Part shown: positions 2,956 through 44,311 of the stretch, piece by piece | Position numbering within the stretch: the stretch's first letter is position 1 | Layout of the letters: the number at the start of each line of letters is the position of its first letter | From: Escherichia phage skuden | Reading direction: 5' to 3' (one strand) | DNA length: 64,000 nucleotides | Sequence record: MN850585.1 | Notes under the pieces: generated by a model | Database searches by the model: none | Seen by the model: the letters and a program-made list of their open reading frames with translations, nothing else | Told to the model about the DNA's origin: nothing | Made by a program: the position numbers and the translations under genes

Positions 2956-3327
2956 TTATTTTTCAGTATTCTTTGTGTTCTTTTCAGTAATAGCTTGGAG
3001 GGCTGATACTGATTGAGCCAGATTGTTAACACTATCAGAGAATTTATCAAGAGTCTTAGTAAGTTTTGCGTTCTCTCCCTTAACATTCTCTAACTGAACT
3101 TTCTGGTTCTCCATCCCTAGCTGAATCAGTCTCATGTCAGACTGTAAATCACGAATAGCTGAATAGTTACTTTTGGAATAATTATCTAGCTGCTGTAACT
3201 TTGTTGTGACAGACACTTCTTGCTTACCACTTGAAACTTGCATGGTGGTATACATCCCAATAACACTAAAAATACCAACAACAATTGCACCAATATTGTT
3301 TTTAAAAGCTTCCTCTAGCCACTTCAT
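2956..3327 (-). CDS. membrane protein with one N-terminal TM helix and long coiled-coil
   Basis: 123 aa; IGAIVVGIFSVIGMYTT hydrophobic segment then heptad-like Q/L/N-rich region; function unknown. Confidence 0.45.
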   Translation of the reverse strand: MKWLEEAFKNNIGAIVVGIFSVIGMYTTMQVSSGKQEVSVTTKLQQLDNYSKSNYSAIRDLQSDMRLIQLGMENQKVQLENVKGENAKLTKTLDKFSDSVNNLAQSVSALQAITEKNTKNTEK

Positions 3328-3522: not shown

Positions 3523-3601
3523 TTAATCACCTCATCAGCCAAGATGGTGAGAATACCCATAAAGAATATTAACACCATCTTAACAATCAGTCAACAAGGG
3601 A

Positions 3602-5947
3602 TTAAGCAGTTCTCACCCAAGCCATTAACTTGTAGAACTGGTTAGTAACACTAAATGCTGAACCAGAACCTGTACCACCAGTGTTACCACTAACTGTATG
3701 GCTGTGAGCACCAATACCAACACTGTGAGCATGGTTACCAGCAGAAGCGGCAGTACCACTTACAGAGTGGGTGTGAGCACCGTTAGCATCGGTGTAACCC
3801 GGTCCTACACCAATACTACCACCACCACCACCAGAGTAGTGTGTAGAGTTCTGACCAATCCACGAAATGGAATGGTTGTGGTTACCAGCAGATGAAGTAG
3901 AGCCACTTACAGAGTGAGCGTGAGCACCAGTCGTGTTAGTGTTTTTTGTTCCGTAGTCAAAAGATGAAGTGGTAGCAGAAAAACTGTGAGTGTGTGAAGG
4001 CAAGTTCCCAACAGCTAACGTCACAGAGTCTGAACCACCAGTTGTAGCAACATCTGAACCATTTGCTGCTGCAATTCTGATAGTTCTACCAACACCATTG
4101 TTGAGGTACGTCCAAGTTAGACCAGGCAGTGCTGTATTAGGGTTAACATTACTGTTAAACCACGTTACAATACCTACTGGATAGATTTTATTAAGGTCTG
4201 TAGAGTCACTTACTGCCTGTGCAATCTTCTGGTCAGTTTCAGTTTTAGTGTATGCACCAATATCTGAAGGGGTTGGTTTAAATGCCGTTGAATACAACTG
4301 TGCCTCTCCAACATATTCTCCATCTGACCCATAAGCATATGTGAAGACATCAAGACCTTTAGACCCATATGTAAAAGCAATACCTCTGGCATGAGCAATG
4401 CCAGCAGAGTGTGCTACATGGATGGCTAAATCTTTCAGACCCTGCTCAATATCGTTATTTCTTACAAACCCTGAATAATCTTTATTGAATGACGCTGTGT
4501 CCTCCAACCTATTAGTTGTCCTTACCATTAAAGATTGGTTTAGCAGTTTTGTTTTTAAGAAATATCTAGCATCTAAGTTAGACCAATCAGAAGGCTGCAC
4601 TTGACCAGTGATTTTGACAGTTTTATTCAACAAGAAATCATCTTTCATATAAATCGTAGTTGCGGTTCTGTCGTTATGGATAACAAATCTTTCTGGGTTG
4701 GATGGTTCCCCATTCCCAATGTACCACCTTCTAACACCATCAGCATTATGACCAGCAAAGTATAGCTCTCTGTCTTGTGTAGTATTCTTTAGCTGTAACA
4801 ATGAGCCATTCTGATTAATAATCTGTGCAATCCTAAAAGTGTTTACATCACTTAACTTAGCAAGATTGCTCAAAGTTCCTGCTGAGATGTATCTAGAGTC
4901 AATGTTAGTCCAATCTGAAGGTTGAACTTGACCAGTGATTTTCACAGTCTTAGTAGTGGTAATCACATTTGACAAAGAGATAGTTGTACTCGTGGTGTAG
5001 TTATGTAGGTTGACTACAGAATCAGAGTCATCAGTCCCTAAGTAGAACTTGTTTGTCCCATCAGCCTTCTGCCCCAGCAAGTACAGTCCAGTTGCAGCAG
5101 TGGCATTCTTAACGACTAGCACAGCGTTATCTCTGGTGATATTGAACTCTCCTACAAAATTGTTAATACCCCTGAAGGTGTTATTGCCAACTAGCTGCGC
5201 AAATCTCTGATTAGCTGCTGTCTGAGTAAAGTATCTAGCATCTAAGTTAGAGAAGTCAGAAGGTTGAACCTGTCCAGTAATAGCGAGAGCCTTATTAACA
5301 GACACAATTGCACCTAGAGTGATTCTTGAACCTCTGCTGTTTTCGAGATGAACATCAAGACTTCCTCGAGTTAGATTCCCAACAGCCCAAGTTTTATCAT
5401 TATTGGCATTTCGACCTACAATAGCGGAGTATGCCTCACTTGCACCCGCAGGGGTCTTCAGTGTCAACTGCTCACCATTTGCTACGACACTCTGTTTAGC
5501 TTGGAATGAGTTTGTAACAGCAAGTCTTGCATATCTTGCATCATTCTCTTCATTAGTTCTCATCCCAAGTTCATTAGGACTTGGCTTATTAAGAGTATGA
5601 TAAACAGTTGCAGACCTTGAAGCATCTGCAATAGTTAGTTTAAGACCATTTGCATTGATTTTAAAAGCCTTTAAAACATCCCCCATAGTAATCTCAGAAG
5701 AACCTGTAGGGTCAAATACTGCCTTACCACCATAAAGTAACTTGACAATTCCTAAGTCACCCGTCATAGTGCTACCAGCAATCTGGACAAATCTTTCTAG
5801 TTTAAAAGACGCTAAGAAGTCTTGATAGGTCATTCGACGGTCTTCATCACCCAGCATTTCAGGTCTCTTTTTAACCCTGATATGAAGGAGGTCGTCTGAA
5901 CGAATTGTATCAATTGAGTTTAATTCACTCAACTTGTAATCTGCCAT
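3602..5947 (-). CDS. tail fibre protein (long) with His-rich C-terminal HxH repeats
   Basis: 781 aa; three internal repeats VKITGQVQPSD(W/F)(S/T)N(L/I)D(A/S)RY; C-terminus HTHSFSATTSS...GAHAHSVSG...NHNHSI...GAHSHTVSG...MAWVRTA, shared with the next fibre. Confidence 0.7.
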   Translation of the reverse strand: MADYKLSELNSIDTIRSDDLLHIRVKKRPEMLGDEDRRMTYQDFLASFKLERFVQIAGSTMTGDLGIVKLLYGGKAVFDPTGSSEITMGDVLKAFKINANGLKLTIADASRSATVYHTLNKPSPNELGMRTNEENDARYARLAVTNSFQAKQSVVANGEQLTLKTPAGASEAYSAIVGRNANNDKTWAVGNLTRGSLDVHLENSRGSRITLGAIVSVNKALAITGQVQPSDFSNLDARYFTQTAANQRFAQLVGNNTFRGINNFVGEFNITRDNAVLVVKNATAATGLYLLGQKADGTNKFYLGTDDSDSVVNLHNYTTSTTISLSNVITTTKTVKITGQVQPSDWTNIDSRYISAGTLSNLAKLSDVNTFRIAQIINQNGSLLQLKNTTQDRELYFAGHNADGVRRWYIGNGEPSNPERFVIHNDRTATTIYMKDDFLLNKTVKITGQVQPSDWSNLDARYFLKTKLLNQSLMVRTTNRLEDTASFNKDYSGFVRNNDIEQGLKDLAIHVAHSAGIAHARGIAFTYGSKGLDVFTYAYGSDGEYVGEAQLYSTAFKPTPSDIGAYTKTETDQKIAQAVSDSTDLNKIYPVGIVTWFNSNVNPNTALPGLTWTYLNNGVGRTIRIAAANGSDVATTGGSDSVTLAVGNLPSHTHSFSATTSSFDYGTKNTNTTGAHAHSVSGSTSSAGNHNHSISWIGQNSTHYSGGGGGSIGVGPGYTDANGAHTHSVSGTAASAGNHAHSVGIGAHSHTVSGNTGGTGSGSAFSVTNQFYKLMAWVRTA

Positions 5948-22816: not shown

Positions 22817-23316
22817 TAATTAAACCTTACTTTTTGTTTAAGGACTGTTGAATGGTTACCAGATTCATCTACCACATTTACAATCATATCATATACTTTG
22901 CCTTTGACAAGTACTTTGTAATCATTTTGTGAAAAAATGTATTCAAGTCTGTTTGTTTCTTTATTAACTGTCATTGGAGATTGAAATGCAGTGTCGAGGG
23001 TAATGAAAGCGGCTTCAATGCTATTAACATTGATACGTTTATTCTCGCAGTTATATAACTTTACACCCAAAAGGCATGAACTGTCAAATGGAATTTTAAC
23101 AATTTCACTACAATTTCCTGAAATAAACGGTTTTCCACTCATTGGTGCATCAAGTAACCTGCAAATAGTGAAAACGTCAGAGGTTCCACCATCACTTACA
23201 TAACCTGAAAGGCTGACCCTTGAGCCAGCCTCTACAGATAATTTGTCAGTGATAATAAGAACACCTCTATACGAATGCACTCGTGTAGCATTTGAAATAG
23301 AGATAACTTCAGCCAT
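22816..23316 (-). CDS. hypothetical head-module protein
   Basis: 166-aa ORF. Confidence 0.4.
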   Translation of the reverse strand: MAEVISISNATRVHSYRGVLIITDKLSVEAGSRVSLSGYVSDGGTSDVFTICRLLDAPMSGKPFISGNCSEIVKIPFDSSCLLGVKLYNCENKRINVNSIEAAFITLDTAFQSPMTVNKETNRLEYIFSQNDYKVLVKGKVYDMIVNVVDESGNHSTVLKQKVRFN

Positions 23317-24798: not shown

Positions 24799-26415
24799 TC
24801 AACGTCTAAGCCCCTCATATGGGTTTCCTCTCACTAAGTCTGTGTGAGCACCCATTGATGGTGGCTTGAATAATTTAACTTCGTTAAGACTGTTGAAAGC
24901 ATCACTGGTAGCATCCACTTGGTCATCTTTAGTTTTGCCATCACCACAAAAGCCTTCAAGCTCTTGGAAATAAGCTTCGTTCCAACTACCTCTCAAAACT
25001 TTTACAAGTCCAGCTTCAGAAGCAGCAGAAAATCCCGCAAAGCGGGTAACTTTATCTTTATTTGTTGGCTTAGCTCTTGCACGATAGCCTTTCTCGGCAA
25101 GTTTCCTGATGAGGGATGTTGCGTAGGATTTACCAGCAGCGCCTGGGTCTTGAGGGATAAAAATACCAGTTCGCTTACCGTCACTTTCAGCAGTCAAATT
25201 AATTTGTGTTTCGACTCCAGAGGGTCTATCTCTAAATCTTACTACATCAATGATATAATAGCAACCGTCTTTTTTAGATTTACCCATCTTAACACCTGCT
25301 GTCCAGTCTGGATTAGGGTTAACCTCAGATGGTAAAGTTGCTGCTAAGTCCCATGCTCTAACATCAAATACATCCTCTGGGAGTGAATCAACAATTTCAC
25401 ACCATTGTCTTTGCCAATAGTTTGAACCTTCTGCACGAGCCTTCCAGTTACCAAAACGAAGTCTTGCAACGTTTACAGGGGTGTTGTTTTCCAACTTACC
25501 ACGGTACTTAGGTTCTAAGAAGTCAAGGATTGGGTTATCATCAATCGTACCAGAGATGAAGGTGTATGTTTGAGGAATCTCAAGAGGGAACATTTCAAGA
25601 ATCTTGTCTCTCTCCCAATCAGAAACCATCACACCATCATTCATTACATACCAACGAATACGACCACACTTTTCAGGGTCTGGATAACCTTCTTCATCTA
25701 AGAATGGTTCTACCCAATCATAAATAAAGTGGTCTCTGTCTGGGTTCATGGAAATCTTCATGTATGAATCACCTTCAGCACCAGAACGAAGACGTGTTTG
25801 TAGGTATGAAATCTGTGAAGCAGAGAAGTGTGTACCTTCGTCAAAGTAAATAGCTGAGTATTCAATACCCTGATGACCTTCAGCGTGCTTTTCAAGTTCT
25901 AGATAGGTAAACTTGATAGTCGCCCCAGAAGGGAATGTGATAGTCATTTTCTGCTCGTGAGGAATCCCACCAAACTTACCAAATAGTTTCTTTGCAGCAG
26001 GCCATAAACCACCTTGTAGCTGTGTTGTGTTTCGACGGAAATACACAGCGTTATAGTTAGGGTCTTCAATAAATCTTAAAGAGTCCATTAATAATGCAGC
26101 AGTCTTACCAGCACCAGCAGCACCACCATAGAGAACCAAGTCAGCATTAGTATTTAAAAAGACCTCTTGAGAACCCGGCTGAGGGGCTACATAGTTCTTA
26201 TCAGTCATCAATTTGAAGATAAGTCTAACTTGGTCTGGTGTGTATCTTAATAAAGTCAGAATTTGAGTTGGAAGGAATTTAGAGGGGTCTTTACCGAATG
26301 ATTTGATAATTTCTTTTACTTCATCAGAAAGCCCCAACTCTCCAGCTAGGACTTTCCTAACATCTTCCACTCGCTTCTGCTTAACAGCATTTAAGTCCAT
26401 TAAGCACCTCCGCAA
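24799..26415 (-). CDS. terL: terminase large subunit
   Basis: 538 aa; Walker A LYGGAAGAGKT; C-terminal nuclease-like acidic motifs. Confidence 0.85.
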   Translation of the reverse strand: MRRCLMDLNAVKQKRVEDVRKVLAGELGLSDEVKEIIKSFGKDPSKFLPTQILTLLRYTPDQVRLIFKLMTDKNYVAPQPGSQEVFLNTNADLVLYGGAAGAGKTAALLMDSLRFIEDPNYNAVYFRRNTTQLQGGLWPAAKKLFGKFGGIPHEQKMTITFPSGATIKFTYLELEKHAEGHQGIEYSAIYFDEGTHFSASQISYLQTRLRSGAEGDSYMKISMNPDRDHFIYDWVEPFLDEEGYPDPEKCGRIRWYVMNDGVMVSDWERDKILEMFPLEIPQTYTFISGTIDDNPILDFLEPKYRGKLENNTPVNVARLRFGNWKARAEGSNYWQRQWCEIVDSLPEDVFDVRAWDLAATLPSEVNPNPDWTAGVKMGKSKKDGCYYIIDVVRFRDRPSGVETQINLTAESDGKRTGIFIPQDPGAAGKSYATSLIRKLAEKGYRARAKPTNKDKVTRFAGFSAASEAGLVKVLRGSWNEAYFQELEGFCGDGKTKDDQVDATSDAFNSLNEVKLFKPPSMGAHTDLVRGNPYEGLRR

Positions 26416-26421
26416 ATAGAA

Positions 26422-26622
26422 TTATTCAGAGTCTGTAGCAGTCTCTTCTTTCTTAACTTCGAACTTTGCATCAACAGCATCAAGAAGTGCATCCATAGAT
26501 GCTTCTTTGATATCAATACCTGTTGCTACAGATAATCTGTCTGCAATTGCCATGATAGTGTTCTGCATAAATTCTAGCTTTTTATTAGCTTCATAAAGTT
26601 CTTTATAAACGGTCTCACTCAT
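26422..26622 (-). CDS. small protein upstream of terL (possible small terminase/accessory)
   Basis: 66-aa ORF with RBS GGAGAAAAC; function not determinable. Confidence 0.35.
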   Translation of the reverse strand: MSETVYKELYEANKKLEFMQNTIMAIADRLSVATGIDIKEASMDALLDAVDAKFEVKKEETATDSE

Positions 26623-26844: not shown

Positions 26845-26920
26845 TGGAGAATCCGAAGGGACTCGAACCCTTATAAACCTGTTTTGCAGACAGGCACATA
26901 GCCATTTCTGTCACGGATTC
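26845..26920 (-). tRNA. tRNA-Cys (anticodon GCA)
   Basis: hand-folded cloverleaf; T-loop TTCGAGT; 7-bp acceptor; loop CTGCAAA; CCA encoded. Confidence 0.65.
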
Positions 26921-26924
26921 AAAT

Positions 26925-27017
26925 TGGAGGAAGATACCAGACTTGAACTGGTACACCGATTTCTCAGCTACTGGCAGTTTAGCAAACTGCTCCCTTACCT
27001 TTTAGGGTTAATCTTCC
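26925..27017 (-). tRNA. tRNA-Ser (anticodon GCT), class II
   Basis: 93 nt; acceptor GGAAGAT/ATCTTCC; T-loop TTCAAGT; anticodon loop TTGCTAA; long variable arm. Confidence 0.6.
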
Positions 27018-27018
27018 A

Positions 27019-27756
27019 TTATTTCTGTAATGCGCTCTTCATTTCTGGTGTTGCAATAGTGTCGATTACACCAGTTTTACAAGCATCATCAAACCAGTCT
27101 GGTAAGATACCTGCTAAGAACCCATTGATATTCGTTTTAAGGTACTCTGCAATAAGGGCAGCTTCTTCTTCAATCATCTGCACAACTTCATCTGCATAAG
27201 CTGTAATCTTTGAGATACCTTCATTAATCTTACTAACAGCCTGATTAGCTAAATCAGAAACAGTATCAAGACCCTTATCAATAGCGTCTTGTAAGTCACT
27301 TAACACACTGTTAACACTGTCTAGTGTGCTGTTAATCATGTCAATAGCTTTTTGACCATACTCTGTAGCAACACCCATAATACCACTGAATGGTGTACAA
27401 CCAACTTGTTCTCCTGCTGCACCCATAACATTGGAATATCCCTTTGCTACCTGCATACGTGATGAAAACTCATCAATAGACTTTTGACCATAGTCTGTTA
27501 GGGTCTTAGTGGTTGCTGTAGTGCTTGTCAGGCTTGTTGTAAAGCTGTTTAGAAGGACTGTTGTAAGTCCAGCAGCAACAAGCTTCTCCTTCATTGTAGG
27601 GTCTGTTACAGAGCTAATAGAGCTTACAAGTGATGTAGAGGCAGCTACGGTTCCACCGAGAACTGCTGCACCAGTAATAAGTGGGTTAGAAAACCCTTTA
27701 CCGGTTTTTAAGAGATTAAAAATCTCCTTACCTTGTTCTGTCATCTCTTTCATTAA
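27019..27756 (-). CDS. hypothetical protein (Ser/Thr-rich) inside tRNA cluster
   Basis: track ORF 27019..27969 has an N-terminal extension overlapping tRNAs; likely start at MKEMTEQ (27756). Confidence 0.4.
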   Translation of the reverse strand, partial: LMKEMTEQGKEIFNLLKTGKGFSNPLITGAAVLGGTVAASTSLVSSISSVTDPTMKEKLVAAGLTTVLLNSFTTSLTSTTATTKTLTDYGQKSIDEFSSRMQVAKGYSNVMGAAGEQVGCTPFSGIMGVATEYGQKAIDMINSTLDSVNSVLSDLQDAIDKGLDTVSDLANQAVSKINEGISKITAYADEVVQMIEEEAALIAEYLKTNINGFLAGILPDWFDDACKTGVIDTIATPEMKSALQK

Positions 27757-27769
27757 GCACCTTTGAAAT

Positions 27770-27845
27770 TGGTAGTCCAGTGGGATTTGAACCCTCTTCT
27801 CATGTTTTTCAGACACGCGCTTTACCATATAAGCTACTTGGACTA
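27770..27845 (-). tRNA. tRNA-Phe (anticodon GAA)
   Basis: perfect 7-bp acceptor TAGTCCA/TGGACTA; T-loop TTCAAAT; anticodon loop CTGAAAA. Confidence 0.6.
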
Positions 27846-27850
27846 TAAAT

Positions 27851-27926
27851 TGGGGTGACCTACGGGATTTGAACCCGTATAGACCATGTTCACAGCATGG
27901 GTCATTACCATTTATGATAAGGCCAC
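27851..27926 (-). tRNA. tRNA-His (anticodon GTG)
   Basis: T-arm ACGGG-TTCAAAT-CCCGT; anticodon stem CCATG/CATGG with loop CTGTGAA. Confidence 0.65.
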
Positions 27927-27957
27927 ATTTAAGGACTCTCGTAAGAACCCTTAGAAG

Positions 27958-40135: not shown

Positions 40136-40600
40136 ATGAAAATTAAAGAAGTCGTTCAAAAAGCAATGCTTGACAACTCAACTAAAGATGAAATGTACAA
40201 AGAGATTTGTGATAAGTTGAATTGTTCAAGACATGCTGCTAAGGCTCTTGTACATTGCTTTATCTGGGAATGCTCAGAAGCTTATATGCAATATGTAGCT
40301 TTTGAAAGTTCTCACTTACTAGGTGATGTAGAAGTTGGTGAGAAACTAAAAGAACCTGAGATGAAAACAGTTCCTAAAGTTGGTAATGTATACCCTCTTA
40401 AAGATTTCAAGACTGGAAAGATTGTTGCAAAAGGTGTAGTAGAATCTGTCTACCATGATGGTAAATACTTACTTAAAATATTTGAGTATGACAGCCACTA
40501 TAAGCACTTATGTGGGATTACATTCTTAGTAACAGAAGAAGACCTTATTAAGAACAACAGCAACAAGTTTGCAGTACCAGCCTACCAAGTTTTACGATAA
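40136..40600 (+). CDS. hypothetical protein
   Basis: 154-aa ORF. Confidence 0.45.
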   Translation: MKIKEVVQKAMLDNSTKDEMYKEICDKLNCSRHAAKALVHCFIWECSEAYMQYVAFESSHLLGDVEVGEKLKEPEMKTVPKVGNVYPLKDFKTGKIVAKGVVESVYHDGKYLLKIFEYDSHYKHLCGITFLVTEEDLIKNNSNKFAVPAYQVLR

Positions 40601-40613
40601 TGGTGTGATAGCT

Positions 40614-41162
40614 ATGGAAAAAGATAACTTAAAAGAAGTTGAAGGTAACTACCTAGTACTTGATTGGAATGATATTCGGGAAGCACTATCCGAAGAAAGC
40701 CTTGACCTGCTAGAGCAACTTATCTTCTCAGTACGCCATACCAGAGGTATTGTAAACGGTAAAGAGCCACTTGAAGGAATCTTTGTAGAGAAGTCTTATC
40801 CGTTCTATGAAGACACCTTGCAGAAAGTTAAAATGTACTTTAAACAGAAGAACCGTAAAGTGGTCACGATGGTATCTCTTGGTGGGCAGAGTATGTCTGT
40901 GATGGAAGATATCAACCCTAAGAGACCGAGTAAAGGTGTCTGTATAAAAATCACAGGTCATGAAGAGTATATCTCAGCAAGTGATTTTAGTGTATTCTGT
41001 AATGGTTCTGCTGTCTTTAATGGGTTTCACTATGATATCCGAGTGTATCCAATCAAGGGAGATGATATCATGATGCAGATATTTGATAACAACAATGGAT
41101 TCACTCATTTTTATCAGACAACTAAGTCATCACTAAAAGCAGTTTTAGAAAATCTGATTTAG
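40614..41162 (+). CDS. hypothetical protein
   Basis: track ORF 40569..41162; likely start MEKDN at 40614 after upstream stop at 40600. Confidence 0.45.
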   Translation: MEKDNLKEVEGNYLVLDWNDIREALSEESLDLLEQLIFSVRHTRGIVNGKEPLEGIFVEKSYPFYEDTLQKVKMYFKQKNRKVVTMVSLGGQSMSVMEDINPKRPSKGVCIKITGHEEYISASDFSVFCNGSAVFNGFHYDIRVYPIKGDDIMMQIFDNNNGFTHFYQTTKSSLKAVLENLI

Positions 41163-41173
41163 AATATCTTAAG

Positions 41174-41198
41174 AGCCTCCTTAATTGGGGGCTTTTTA
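41174..41198 (+). terminator. rho-independent terminator ending the plus-strand gene block
   Basis: AGCCTCC-TTAATT-GGGGGCT (7 bp incl. one G-U) followed by TTTTTAATTTTT. Confidence 0.65.
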
Positions 41199-41269
41199 AT
41201 TTTTATAAAATTTTATCGGTTATCCCAACCTCTGGGTCACCATCATATGTGAACAAAATATCTATCCTT

Positions 41270-42370
41270 CTTAACAATCTTCTTAATCTTACTCTCTATA
41301 TAGTTATATAGTACTATATAGTATCTTAGCATCTATCTAGTGGTCTTAATAGCCCCTCTGTATAACCCTTCTAACTAGCCCTCTAACAAGCCTTCTAAAC
41401 ATTCTTCTAACAAGCCTTCTTAACAACCTATACAATCACCTTAACCATCTCTCTATACCCTCTTAGAAGCTCCTATACACCTCTTAATCTCTAGGTTAGC
41501 TATGATACCCTCTATAGGTGTTCACTAGGTACTACTAAGCCTCTATATAGACTGTTTTAACAAACTTAACAGGAATATCTTTACAGACCTTATCTCACAA
41601 GGTCTAACACGGTACTAACAAGGTATCTTATAAGCCTGTTTATGCCTGTATTTTTAAAAGACTGTCTAGGTAATTATTCAGAATTTTAAAATTTTTATAA
41701 AATAGGACTATCAAGTCATTTTTTAGGGTCTTTGAAGGAACTCAAAAATATCTGATTAGGATGTATATCTGCTTGGTAGCCCTTAACAGCTCCTTAACAC
41801 CCCCTTTGCAAAATTTTAAAATATCCTTAACAATCTCTTAACAGCTTTCACATCTTCTTAACAACTCTTCAAAGGCCTTAACAGTTTCTTAACAGAACTA
41901 ACAAGGTTGTAACAGTTTTCTAACAAGTGCTGAATAGTCTTTACAGATGCTTAACAGATGGCTAACAAGAGCTAACAAGTTAATTTTAAAGAGTTATTTT
42001 GTTAAGATAATTAACAAGTTCCTAACAAGTATTTAATCTTTTTAACAAGCTATTAACATGGTCACAGTGGTTGGTTACAAACACAACTTCTCTTTTCTTA
42101 TCATTCCCTTTCCTTTCTTAGTGACCTTTTAAATAGCCCTTTTAAAAGCTTTCTATAGCTCCTTGTAAGCCCTTTTTAGTACCTCCCTAGTAATTACACC
42201 CCAACTATACAGACACCTATTTATAAGGCTTTACAGGAGCTTTAAAGGTTATGTCAAAGACTCTTACAAAGCTTTTACGTGGTTTTAACAGAGATTTAAC
42301 AAGGGGCTAACAAGTTGCTAACAAGTGCCTTAAAAGCATAACTATGTAGGGATTGTTAAGAATTTGTTAA
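41270..42370. repeat. dense array of short direct repeats (C)TTAACA(A/G) / CTAACAAG in ORF-free DNA
   Basis: more than 35 copies at irregular 8-25 bp spacing by eye; no ORF of 60 aa or more on either strand across 41163..42914. Confidence 0.7.
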
Positions 42371-42379
42371 GAAAATGTT

Positions 42380-42900
42380 AAGGGGGCTAGCATTTACGTA
42401 ACTTTATAGCCTCTTTTACGTAACTTTTAAGCTACTTCAAAGTAACTTTATAGCCCCTATAACATACTTTTTAGTGACTATCAAGGGGGTTGTTTAGTTA
42501 TTCACAAGAATACTAATGAGATGATAAAGCTTACACCCTTATAAGATTCTTTTAAGGCTCTGGGAAGCTTTATAAAGGGCTTTTAAGGGTGAGGTAATGC
42601 AATCCCTTAAGTTAGGTTGATAAGGCTGTTATAGGGCGTTATAGAGCGTTTAAGGGGTTGCCCTTCCCTTTCGGGTTATGGGCTTTTATTTAAGTTGATT
42701 TGATAAGAGGTTATAGAGTAGACTATAGAGTTATTGTTTTTAAGGTATGAGATAGGTTCTATCGAATCAGTGGGAAGATTCTGGAAAGGAAAGGGAAAGG
42801 GTTGTATAAGGAATTTGATAGGACGTAAAAAAGCCCCTATGAGATAGATTCTATTGAATCCATATATAAAGGGGCTGTAAAGGTATCTGGGGCTATTTAG
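42380..42900. repeat. second repeat-rich non-coding segment (TTATAG(C/A)G, AAGGG(G), GGGCTT motifs)
   Basis: clusters such as GTTATAGGGCGTTATAGAGCG and GAAAGGAAAGGGAAAGGG; ORF-free. Confidence 0.5.
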
Positions 42901-42914
42901 CCCCGTTGCGTCGA

Positions 42915-43163
42915 TTAGTTAGTGCCTTCTTTGTCGTAGTACAGGGAGACGATTTTTTCACCCCAATAGTGATATGAATAGCCCTCTTTGAGAACTTCCT
43001 GTTTTGTTTCTTTCCAGAACTCATCTGAAGGATTATAGTCTTTGATGGTCTGACTGATAAGAACTTTCACCATTTCAAAGGCGTTATCAGTACCCACAAG
43101 GTCGAATTTAACATCCAGAGAGTAGAAGCCAAATTCGTTAACAGTTGCGCGGATAGTTGCCAT
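42915..43163 (-). CDS. small hypothetical protein (cassette-array gene 1)
   Basis: 82 aa; conserved upstream cassette with RBS AGGAGACTCTAAA-ATG. Confidence 0.5.
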   Translation of the reverse strand: MATIRATVNEFGFYSLDVKFDLVGTDNAFEMVKVLISQTIKDYNPSDEFWKETKQEVLKEGYSYHYWGEKIVSLYYDKEGTN

Positions 43164-43228
43164 TTTAGAGTCTCCTAGTTTAAGGACTTTACTTAGTGGG
43201 GAGGTTATCCCTCCCGTTGATTAGTAAT
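43164..43228 (-). repeat. intergenic cassette family A (GC hairpin GGGAGG-TTAT-CCTCCC + conserved RBS)
   Basis: near-identical to copies at 43493, 44089, 44654, 45874, 46922. Confidence 0.65.
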
Positions 43229-43492
43229 TTACTGCATGTTGGCGTATGTTGCAAGCCTTTTTTCGTTGTATTTTGTAAGAATCTCACAAGATAAAACATC
43301 ATATTTTGTAATAGCGTTGCCTTTTTCGAGGTCAAAGAATCCAAACGTTTTACCATCTTTGAATCCGACAACTTCGTAAGACTCTTTGATGATTTCACCA
43401 TTGAACAAATCACTTTCGATGCGGTGAATTAATGCTACGTTTTCTTTGTCGGTTGCAATTTGTAAAAGTTTGGTTAATTCTACGTTTTCCAT
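43229..43492 (-). CDS. small hypothetical protein (cassette-array gene 2)
   Basis: 87 aa. Confidence 0.5.
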   Translation of the reverse strand: MENVELTKLLQIATDKENVALIHRIESDLFNGEIIKESYEVVGFKDGKTFGFFDLEKGNAITKYDVLSCEILTKYNEKRLATYANMQ

Positions 43493-43557
43493 CTTGATGC
43501 CCCTAGTTTAAGGATTTTATTGAGTGGGGGAGGTCATCCCCCCCGTTGATTGACAAT
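43493..43557 (-). repeat. intergenic cassette family A copy
   Basis: GTGGGGGAGGTCATCCCCCCCGTTGATTGACAATTTACAG. Confidence 0.65.
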
Positions 43558-44088
43558 TTACAGATTTTTGATTGTCTCGTCAATATCTTTTTCAATATCT
43601 CTCAAAGTTTTTTCTAAGTTCTGGATATTGAAAGATAAACCTTCTCCCAGTGTCTTAGAGTAACCGCTAGGACGTGAGTCATAGAGTTCGATTTCTTCCA
43701 CTTCGAAGAGACTAACCAAATCACCGCTTACATTGTAAGCCATTGAAACAGTATTTACAGGGGCTTTATAGAACTTGTTTAAAAACTTGATAGAACGCTC
43801 GTAAGCCATTTTATAACTGTTTAAAAGGCTTTTAACGTGTTTGTGAACGTTTTTACACTCATCTAAGTAAAGCCCTAAAAACATCGGGAGAAGTTCCGCG
43901 ACAGCTTGCATAAAGTGAGAGACTGCAACGGTTGCAACATTACGACGATGAACGTAATAAGCCCCGTTTTCTGATTTGGTGATGGTTGCGAAGTGTACCC
44001 CATTGCAGCGAAATTCATAGGTATCTTTAACAGGCTTAGACATTACAGCACTTGAACGAATGTAATTGATAGCTTTGAACTTGTTCAT
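43558..44088 (-). CDS. hypothetical protein (cassette-array gene 3)
   Basis: 176 aa. Confidence 0.5.
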   Translation of the reverse strand: MNKFKAINYIRSSAVMSKPVKDTYEFRCNGVHFATITKSENGAYYVHRRNVATVAVSHFMQAVAELLPMFLGLYLDECKNVHKHVKSLLNSYKMAYERSIKFLNKFYKAPVNTVSMAYNVSGDLVSLFEVEEIELYDSRPSGYSKTLGEGLSFNIQNLEKTLRDIEKDIDETIKNL

Positions 44089-44165
44089 TTTTGAATCTCC
44101 TAGTTTAAGGATTTTACTTAGTGGGGAAGGTCATTACCTCCCGTTGATTAGTAATTTACTTGTTT
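44089..44165 (-). repeat. intergenic cassette family A copy
   Basis: TTTTTGAATCTCCTAGTTTAAGG...GTGGGGAAGGTCATTACCTCCCGTTGATTAGTAATTTAC. Confidence 0.65.
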
Positions 44166-44311
44166 TGATATCTGATTGCAAGCAATTTTTTTAGTTTATC
44201 TTTAAAGAAATCTTTTAAGTGAATCCCTTTAAGATAAACCCCCTCGAACAAAGTTACCAATGTCAAGAGGGATTGTCAACACTTTTTTAAAAGTTTTTTG
44301 TAAGTTGTTGA

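Follow-up and report, generated by a model that had tools for sequence, protein, structure and literature searches.

A gene-free stretch in the genome of Escherichia phage skuden, positions 41163-42914 of the 64,000-nucleotide sequence from record MN850585.1 that we analyzed (hereafter the window), is the concatemer junction of this Felix O1-like myophage (Felixounavirus), and it comprises, from left to right, a terminator, a left flank, a direct terminal repeat (DTR), a right flank and a second terminator. The DTR, at 41775-42387, carries arrays of a five-base element, TAACA (TGTTA on the opposite strand), that recur in helical phase, point outwards at both boundaries and are better conserved than the DNA around them. 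Based on the sequence, we propose, with a probability that we put at roughly 0.55, that these are protein-binding arrays which mark the DTR boundaries for the phage terminase, and that the phosphorylated form of the host response regulator ArcA (ArcA-P) would be the best-fitting binder. An earlier note on this DNA, made from the letters alone, had offered a replication origin, a packaging or terminal-repeat region, a binding-site array or a long non-coding RNA as possible reasons for the density of one short motif here. The terminal repeat and its arrays are laid out as follows.

41775-42387 (no strand): direct terminal repeat, 613 bp, present once in the window and at both ends of the virion DNA, starting with GGTAGCCCTTAACA and ending with TGTTAAGGGGGC; recognized from end duplicates in relatives.
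41784-42058 (minus strand): left array of 17 TAACA (TGTTA on the minus strand), grouped by two, three or four at 11 bp with gaps of 20-39 bp between groups, pointing to the left cut; holds seven ArcA-matrix boxes of at least 15 bits.
42286-42323 (minus strand): four TAACA at exactly 11 bp, with a degenerate TTTACG ahead of them in the same register; the box at 42285 scores 17.9 bits.
42353-42383 (plus strand): three TGTTAA at exactly 11 bp (TTGTTAAGAATTTGTTAAGAAAATGTTAAGG), pointing to the right cut 4 bp away; they vary hardly at all among 11 phages and give the highest ArcA-matrix scores of the window.

The terminal repeat is most directly visible at the ends of related genome records. In the record of Salmonella phage SPJ41 the two ends share an exact duplicate of 613 bp, running from GGTAGCCCTTAACA to TGTTAAGGGGGC, with first and last bases that are, base for base, those at 41775 and 42387. 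The record of phage D4, whose direct terminal repeats have been determined by PhageTerm (PMC11737134), has an exact 581-bp duplicate at both ends, the first base of which corresponds to 42387 and the last to 41775. Records of ECP2307, ZX4221, I14.1 and pEP20 begin or end at the equivalents of 41775 or 42387, and those of NBEco004 and NBEco005 begin or end at the equivalent of 42387. In UAB_Phi87, Bal31 digestion and run-off sequencing gave a DTR of 608 bp (PMC4837284), and the homologous segment of its record is 614 bp long; PhageTerm gave 581 bp for Pr103Blw (PMC8303462) and 439 bp for a Hafnia Kolesnikvirus (PMC8928762), and Erwinia phage M7, which belongs to a different genus, has an exact 444-bp end duplicate at the homologous place. 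DTR ends have also been reported for FO1a (PMC4837284), to whose large terminase protein the product of the large terminase gene of the window (24799-26415) is more than 99% identical. In skuden itself the DTR is assigned by homology, from 87-91% identity and invariant boundaries. The packaging or terminal-repeat option of the earlier note is thus the one borne out, through the exact end duplicates in relatives and the published ends (PMC4837284), and it was the comparison with homologous regions of related phages, which that note had proposed as a check, that revealed both the DTR ends and the motif-specific conservation described below.

The boundaries of the repeat are more constant than its length. 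Among relatives the repeat varies from 559 to 623 bp, and the words at its boundaries are invariant or nearly so in 11 phages. The 15 bases that precede the left boundary (GATGTATATCTGCTT) are the same in 10 of 10 relatives, except for one base in P219, and the 18 bases that follow the right boundary (TAGCATTTACGTAACTTT) are invariant in 11 phages. At the left boundary TGTATATCT is kept in Erwinia phage M7 too, and only about 125 bp there (41762-41886) still align with the Erwinia phages. Because the boundary words stay invariant while the length of the DTR varies, both cuts are set by local sequence and not by distance.

The arrays within the DTR stand out without any prior choice of motif. 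In an unbiased count TAACA is the top k-mer of the region, with 30 occurrences in 1752 bp where the rest of the window would predict 2.8 (Poisson P 6.6e-21), and two of its extensions are likewise over-represented (TAACAAG, 13 against 0.2; CTTAACA, 11 against 0.37). Between 41260 and 42375 there are 29 copies of TAACA on the plus strand and 3 on the minus strand, or 26 per kb compared with 1.6 per kb per strand elsewhere, and the DTR by itself holds 21 on the plus strand (0.98 expected, P 5e-21) plus 4 on the minus strand; overall, such motifs are 10 to 60 times as frequent here as elsewhere in the same genome. The motif density reported in the earlier note therefore holds, far above both the rest-of-window expectation and composition-matched simulations, as the enrichment check that it proposed has now made clear. 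Its figure of more than 35 copies is reached only when one-mismatch variants are counted, since exact YTAACAR occurs 25 times on the plus strand and 3 times on the minus strand, and the spacing that it described as irregular is in fact ordered, with 11 bp as the mode, followed by 20/22 and 31/33. Neighboring elements lie exactly 11 bp apart in 12 of 28 cases and mostly 20 or 31 bp apart in the rest, with a helical phase of about 10.2 bp (Rayleigh R 0.62), which places the TAACA sites on one face of the helix. The same holds across seven related phages, in which a second perfect TGTTA is found at an offset of 11 bp in 36% of cases, at 20, 22 and 31 bp in 13-17%, at 33 bp in 7% and at any other tested offset in at most 5%.

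The layout of the elements mirrors the two cut sites. The first element of the left array starts 9 bp inside the left DTR boundary, and the outward-pointing arrays end 4-8 bp short of each cut site. Together with the left end of the DTR, the triple at 42353-42383 makes up an inverted repeat (I1, 39 nt, 74%), so that both virion ends, read inwards 5' to 3', have the form (TA)GCCC(CC)-TTAACA-N5-TTAACA, a terminal inverted repeat. Within the repeat the groups of elements (pairs, triples and quads at 11 bp) stand two or three helical turns apart, and the middle of the DTR, about 220 bp, is motif-free and is its least conserved part.

Comparison with relatives indicates that it is the elements themselves that are maintained. 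In 12 relatives the TAACA cores of the DTR are 96.8% conserved, compared with 82.2% for random 5-mers, a value that none of 10,000 permutations reached; core positions within the DTR are 98% conserved and non-core positions 83%, and in the comparison with Mooglevirus the cores stand at 92% against 66%. Felixounavirus, Mooglevirus and Kolesnikvirus all have 20-31 elements on one strand and share the layout [<<..<<<< ... <<<< >>>], despite the loss of any alignment with M7 beyond the 125 bp or so at the left boundary. The retention of motif count and layout in the face of such divergence argues that selection acts on the motif and on its arrangement inside the DTR. The TAACA cores of the left flank, outside the DTR, are no better conserved than their surroundings. 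Helical phasing and motif-specific conservation together support the option of an array for a DNA-binding protein, which the earlier note had also raised. In Pseudomonas phage B55, with a large terminase of 41% identity, the gene-poor converging region (41901-44223) contains no TAACA array, and the arrays are therefore not general to this terminase lineage; if that region is the B55 terminus, its lack of an array would suit a factor specific to the host just as well as a phage protein specific to the lineage. The same B55 region has an inserted HNH homing endonuclease gene, and other motifs are modestly enriched in it (CTTGTCAT and GCTTTCGC, four copies each).

Read on the other strand, TAACA is TGTTA, the core of the direct repeats recognized by ArcA. 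Sites of E. coli ArcA-P consist of 10-bp direct repeats (ATGTTAAAAA) with the conserved core TGTTA, spaced 11 bp center to center; most contain a further one to three repeats, 11 or 22 bp away, for two to five in all, and binding is cooperative (PMC4173790; PMC3798270). We scored the window with an 18-bp information matrix built from 115 of the 128 E. coli boxes bound in chromatin immunoprecipitation (ChIP), as given in Table S3 of the ArcA ChIP paper, and set the threshold at 15 bits, which corresponds to the mean of the real sites and to the genome cut-off of those authors (mean about 15.6 bits). The DTR holds nine boxes at or above this threshold and the other 62 kb of the window hold five, while 2000 composition-matched simulations gave a mean of 0.12 boxes and never more than two. 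The boxes at 42353 and 42364 reach 21.9 and 22.7 bits, whereas no Ri listed for the ChIP-bound boxes exceeds 21.4. Relatives have 5-9 boxes of at least 15 bits each, M7 has nine, and 9 of the 13 boxes in the whole Bas63 genome are located in this region. Since such a matrix score mostly restates the presence of TGTTA at 11 bp, a test of the substitution profile was added. Of the 39 one-mismatch elements at an 11-bp offset from a perfect one, 20 carry T4>A or A5>G and none has T3 altered, and the corresponding figures at control offsets are 0 of 24 and 11 of 24. In real ArcA sites T4>A (19%) and A5>G (14%) are the best-tolerated substitutions and T3 is kept in 96%. The degenerate phased elements of the phage thus follow the ArcA substitution profile. 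Elsewhere in the window there is an isolated three-repeat ArcA-like site on the minus strand at 3569-3597 (TTGTTGACTGATTGTTAAGATGGTGTTAA, boxes of 16.7 and 15.1 bits), between the open reading frames (ORFs) 2956-3327 and 3602-5947 (781 amino acids), and Bas63 has boxes of the same two scores at 23053-23081, just downstream of its tail-fiber gene.

Several observations weigh against ArcA as the binder, or against the arrays as the guide of the terminase. The matrix match is mostly a match to TGTTA at 11 bp, and any protein of that specificity would fit equally well. The positions that flank the elements hold only 0.1-0.7 bit, and the spacers are less A+T-rich than those of ArcA, with G or C common; the three elements at 42353-42383 do fit the A+T-rich spacer and flank pattern of ArcA (ATGTTAAAAA). 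TGTTAG makes up 11 of 35 elements, and G after the core is the base that ArcA uses least (about 3%); the enrichment of TAACAAG suggests that the binder contacts bases outside the ArcA core. The 613 bp hold 25 elements, compared with five repeats at most in a chromosomal ArcA site (PMC3798270). Most genes of these phages are without annotation, which leaves room for a phage-encoded binder, and the terminase may take its guidance from the invariant boundary words rather than from the arrays. Felix O1-like phages also form plaques readily in air, a condition of low ArcA phosphorylation. ArcA sites close to the consensus are occupied aerobically as well (PMC4173790), and the anaerobic ribonucleotide reductase genes of the phage are in keeping with infection in settings in which ArcA is phosphorylated. 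Taken together, ArcA or a protein of the same specificity would be the best candidate binder; we give an ArcA-like specificity roughly even odds, and host ArcA itself an appreciably smaller chance.

The pattern is also not unique to these phages. Scanning a viral collection for three consensus ArcA repeats at 11 bp returned at least 120 stretches, and the matches other than Felix O1-like contigs were mostly perfect 11-bp tandem repeats in unrelated contigs, which speaks neither for nor against ArcA. Perfect tandem TGTTA arrays of this kind occur in unrelated contigs of 22-53% G+C (L078, 12699-12845; L066, 11270-11361; L089, 7318-7368; L106, 174-213; L121, 7473-7925). L078, for which the phage collection contains no relative, carries the TGTGTTAATTT unit in two inverted sets of four, upstream of a gene block.

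As regards precedent, the DTR of Felix O1-like phages is already known from experiment and PhageTerm, though most records ignore it. The Felix O1 genome paper lists other repeats and not this region, and 'short terminal repeats' are only inferred there; the genome papers of Moogle and VpaE1 contain nothing relevant to the region, and the accessible part of the PhageMaP essentiality study of Bas63, which targeted genes, has nothing on this intergenic region. Literature searches linking ArcA and Felix O1-like phages returned nothing relevant. The phased arrays, their mirrored relation to the cut sites and the match to ArcA boxes are absent from the searchable literature. The 'repeat_region' features in the records of Danish wastewater phages are short local tandem repeats and not the terminal repeat.

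The DTR has a conserved non-coding flank on either side, and transcription is shut out from both directions. No ORF of 60 amino acids or more is present on either strand of 41163-42914, as the earlier note had stated, and the complete list of ORFs of at least 30 amino acids consists of a TTG-started ORF of 37 on the plus strand (42734-42847), located in the most indel-rich part of the region, and the tail of one of 43 on the minus strand (42893-43024). Its account of converging genes is equally correct: the plus-strand block stops at 41162 and is followed by a hairpin and T-run (41171-41196), the minus-strand block stops at 42915 and is followed on its own strand by a hairpin and U6 (about 42827-42876), and both terminators point inwards, towards the gene-free region. 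The remaining features of the region, which has an A+T content of 65%, are as follows.

41171-41206 (plus strand): intrinsic terminator of the plus-strand gene block, a 10-pair hairpin then a T-run; AYO145A annotates a terminator at the same place, and it is 92% conserved in Felixounaviruses.
41201-41639 (no strand): left flank, with 8 TAACA on the plus strand plus CTCTATA (4 against 0.02) and TATATAG (4 against 0.01) motifs.
41640-41774 (no strand): A+T-rich segment (74%), the most conserved (94.6%) in the alignment of relatives, ending in GATGTATATCTGCTT, which abuts the left cut.
42388-42914 (no strand): right flank, with the invariant TAGCATTTACGTAACTTT, three 22-bp GTAACTTTATAGCC repeats (42398-42473), then TTATAG, TTTAAGG and AAAGGG at 10-11 bp; the least conserved part (77%).
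42827-42876 (minus strand): intrinsic terminator of the minus-strand gene block, an AGCCCCU...AGGGGCU stem with an inner hairpin, then U6; -34.7 kcal/mol, z -5.87 compared with shuffles; an equivalent terminator is annotated in AYO145A and Moogle.

The minus-strand terminator has a long loop and was missed by a simple terminator scan, to be recovered by its folding z-score. The left flank is 91% conserved, compared with 86% and 81% for the adjacent coding DNA, and includes an indel-prone tandem 12-bp array of the CTTCTAAC(A/T)AGCC type at 41368-41429. In the right flank, the second zone of motifs described in the earlier note is real, with enrichment of TTATAG (5 against 0.13), TTTAAGG (4 against 0.10) and AAGGG (7 against 0.45). 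The flank motifs are themselves mirrored, as CTTAA and CTCTAT lie on the plus strand to the left and their reverse complements on the plus strand to the right, with almost none in the reverse arrangement. In the right flank of Erwinia phage M7 (region positions 1011-1299), eleven TTAGAA(G) elements in one orientation, mostly doublets 10-12 bp apart, occupy the place of the Felixounavirus TTATAG and TTTAAGG; the second phased family thus differs between genera and TGTTA does not. A 23-bp element, TATGAGATAG(G/A)TTCTAT(C/T)GAATC, occurs twice in the right flank (42746-42768 and 42838-42860), its second copy being the inner hairpin of the minus-strand terminator, and SP116 has a 24-bp insertion just outside the left DTR boundary that is apparently an inverted copy of it.

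Matches to the region were found in 256 phage records, nearly all Felixounavirus, at 80-91% identity and most of them without annotation there; a few annotate tiny ORFs, and these small ORFs are not common to different records. Even with a permissive threshold, an Rfam scan of 40500-43500 yielded nothing beyond two chance matches that scored too low to count, both located at the region's edge, and a promoter scan of the region found 10 sites where 9.4 are expected, which is chance level and no sign of a transcription unit. The region contains neither an IHF consensus nor a Chi site, and one DnaA box under a strict definition. Further away, 25 transfer RNA (tRNA) genes are clustered on the minus strand at 26845-31675, between the large terminase gene and the gene of a 471-residue protein that matches a PHROG annotated as RNA-binding, and several ORFs listed in that interval overlap tRNA genes and are probably not genes. 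The whole window has no GATC site, where dinucleotide-preserving shuffles predict 179 +/- 12, which suggests strong avoidance of GATC-specific restriction or of a Dam/MutH/SeqA-type system.

Taken together, these features allow a mechanism to be proposed for how the ends are made. In replicating DNA a single copy of the 613-bp segment 41775-42387 stands between successive genomes, and the virion DNA has a copy at either end, a short and exact DTR like that of T7. The TGTTA elements would serve as head-to-tail sites one helical turn apart, along which a winged-helix dimer of the response-regulator type could line one face of the DNA, and the outward-pointing groups at both boundaries would present the same nucleoprotein geometry as mirror images. 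The terminase would nick opposite strands about 613 bp apart, at both boundaries, and packaging would then include synthesis of the second copy, following the T7 model. Duplicating the repeat requires nicks on opposite strands, and the mirrored geometry would let one nuclease do both. The converging terminators would keep RNA polymerase off the complex, and host ArcA-P would have an architectural part comparable to that of IHF at lambda cos. The same architecture could also be used for end protection on entry or for repeat pairing in concatemer recombination. ArcA may thus be the binder, and the arrays may guide end formation. In its most specific form, the proposal would be that Felixounavirus, Mooglevirus and Kolesnikvirus have recruited ArcA-P as a genome-end protein, of which about 25 half-sites coat the DTR and position the terminase at both boundaries; as a whole we consider this tentative and rather unlikely.

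The same arrays could instead be read by a protein of the phage itself, such as an unrecognized small terminase subunit, an end-binding protein or the helix-turn-helix (HTH) regulator encoded at 24-323, in which case the likeness to ArcA sites would be convergence or coincidence; we regard this as a serious contender and still a doubtful one. Terminases normally read repeated pac or cos sites through their own small subunit, as in lambda, SPP1 and P1. The enrichment of the 7-mers TAACAAG and CTTAACA beyond the ArcA core, the class of TGTTAG elements that ArcA disfavors, the many phage genes without an assigned function and the occurrence of 11-bp TGTTA arrays in unrelated viral contigs of very different G+C, where the pattern is not tied to one binder, would all suit such a protein. 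Against it, candidates are hard to find. Searches with PHROGs (ten proteins) and Pfam (six proteins) in the neighborhood of the large terminase gene and of the region recognized neither a small terminase subunit nor a winged-helix protein, gave no Pfam match for the proteins that flank the region, and found a single DNA-binding domain, the Cro/CI-type HTH_3 of the protein at 24-323; a Cro/CI-type HTH protein is also the sole annotated regulator. Such domains usually bind inverted and not head-to-tail repeats, and the best sequence match of the array is to host ArcA and not to a recognized phage protein. Only a large terminase subunit has been reported in these phages (PMC4837284). A 66-residue ORF on the minus strand at 26422-26622, just upstream of the large terminase gene, occupies the place expected of a small terminase; it has no family match and only near-identical homologues, and its predicted structure, a two-helix hairpin with an acidic tail (pLDDT, the predicted local distance difference test, 83), does not resemble a DNA-binding fold. 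The TAACA motif is also unchanged across three genera whose large terminase subunits are about 68% identical, and its tolerated substitutions match the ArcA profile. Alternatively, the arrays could be the iterons of an origin in or beside the DTR, with the 74% A+T segment at 41640-41774 as the unwinding element and the ends dependent only on the invariant boundary words, which we think unlikely. The order of repeats (8, in the left flank), A+T-rich block and repeats (17) has the look of an origin, the block and the left flank are more conserved than the neighboring genes, transcription is shut out from both sides, and these phages encode a primase/helicase (Bas63 annotation). ArcA-P itself binds oriC, and phage P4 has TGTTCACC octamer iterons that are read by its primase-helicase. 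Nevertheless, one DnaA box is all that the region offers, no initiator gene is recognized nearby and none is annotated in Bas63, GC skew follows gene and transcription orientation without an origin signal, and the conservation is motif-specific within the DTR and absent in the left-flank array. The arrays moreover end a few base pairs from both cuts with mirrored orientation, which is not required of an origin. The origin option of the earlier note thus retains an A+T-rich segment between two arrays, which is compatible with an origin and not specific to it, and is left with one DnaA box and no recognized initiator.

The likeness to ArcA sites, which is a matter of sequence scoring, could also reflect a use of ArcA-P apart from DNA ends, with the arrays, on amplified phage DNA, serving as a decoy that sequesters ArcA-P and so lifts repression of respiratory and tricarboxylic acid cycle genes, or as a sensor that ties a phage process to the host redox state. 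Each genome copy would bring 9-14 boxes to a cell in which 176 chromosomal regions are bound by ArcA (PMC3798270), the strongest phage site scores above every listed chromosomal site, and the phage has genes for anaerobic metabolism and for salvage of nicotinamide adenine dinucleotide; a decoy, however, would need neither the location in the terminal repeat, nor the stop at the cut sites, nor the mirrored layout, and we consider it improbable. Least probable of all, and by our estimate very improbable, are a long non-coding RNA locus, a set of genes for small proteins or a motif density that simply follows from A+T-rich composition. A 65% A+T content and the tiny ORFs annotated in a few records would be in keeping with these readings, but an enrichment of 10- to 60-fold is never approached by composition-matched simulations, and the small ORFs are not shared. 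The non-coding RNA put forward in the earlier note finds no support in Rfam matches, which are lacking, in promoter-like sites, which are at chance level, or in the terminators, both of which point inwards.

If phased arrays that mark the DTR boundaries are indeed occupied by ArcA-P, DNA maturation (or end protection, or repeat recombination) would be coupled to the respiratory state of the host, and ArcA would be the first two-component response regulator to serve as a host factor for phage packaging or termini; to our knowledge, no response regulator is known as a packaging factor. A dependence on oxygen or redox state would be relevant to phages meant for the anaerobic gut, and Felix O1-like phages are used in Salmonella typing, in biocontrol and in therapy cocktails, with Bas63 becoming a model phage. 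Whatever the binder, the boundary words GGTAGCCCTTAACA... and ...TGTTAAGGGGGC provide a simple rule for finding the true ends of genomes that most records open at an arbitrary point, leaving 1.7 kb unannotated. In phages without a recognized small terminase subunit, the arrays are the obvious candidate for the packaging signal.

In comparison with known systems, the junction is closest to that of T7-type DTR phages, in which one copy of the repeat stands between genomes, the terminase makes its cuts at fixed sequences and packaging is accompanied by synthesis of the second copy (PMC10438801), and the ends of Felix O1-like phages have accordingly been mapped by Bal31 digestion with run-off sequencing and by PhageTerm (PMC4837284, PMC8303462, PMC11737134). 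It differs from T7 in that the repeat is 613 bp instead of 160 bp, in belonging to a myovirus whose genes converge on the ends, so that entry is not driven by transcription, and in having no recognized small terminase subunit and a repeat that is itself filled with about 25 copies of a phased 5-bp core. Arrays of short repeats adjoin the terminal repeat of T7 as well. The individual elements resemble the sites of E. coli ArcA-P, a member of the OmpR/PhoB family, in their TGTTA core, head-to-tail order, spacing of 11 (22) bp, grouping in twos to fours and scores that equal or exceed those of real sites; unlike ArcA sites, they lie at a phage genome end and not at a promoter, number 25 where five is the most, have less A+T-rich spacers and include the TGTTAG subclass. 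ArcA is known to act on promoters of F-like plasmid transfer genes (PMC7303359). A candidate host protein next to the cleavage site of a phage or plasmid enzyme would be in keeping with IHF at cosB and ArcA at psi, although those systems use one or a few sites where tens are present here, and the region has no IHF consensus. At lambda cosB, and at the psi site of pSC101 in Xer recombination, IHF and ArcA are host proteins that shape the substrate beside a cleavage site. The hexamers of P1 pac and the pacL and pacR boxes of SPP1 place copies of a short motif on both sides of the terminase cut, where they are read by the phage's own small subunit. Repeated elements near terminase cleavage are common to those pac sites and to the junction described here, in which they point outwards and stop 4-8 bp from both boundaries; P1 and SPP1, however, package by the headful with one cut per series, whereas two fixed cuts are made per genome here. 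With iteron origins, such as lambda ori, P4 ori/crr and those of plasmids, the arrays share direct repeats on one face of the helix beside an A+T-rich block, but the usual iteron unit is 17-22 bp with its initiator encoded nearby, while here a core of 5-7 bp recurs at 11 bp and no initiator is recognized. The region is best described as a T7-type concatemer junction with an unusual recognition architecture, possibly one that depends on a host factor.

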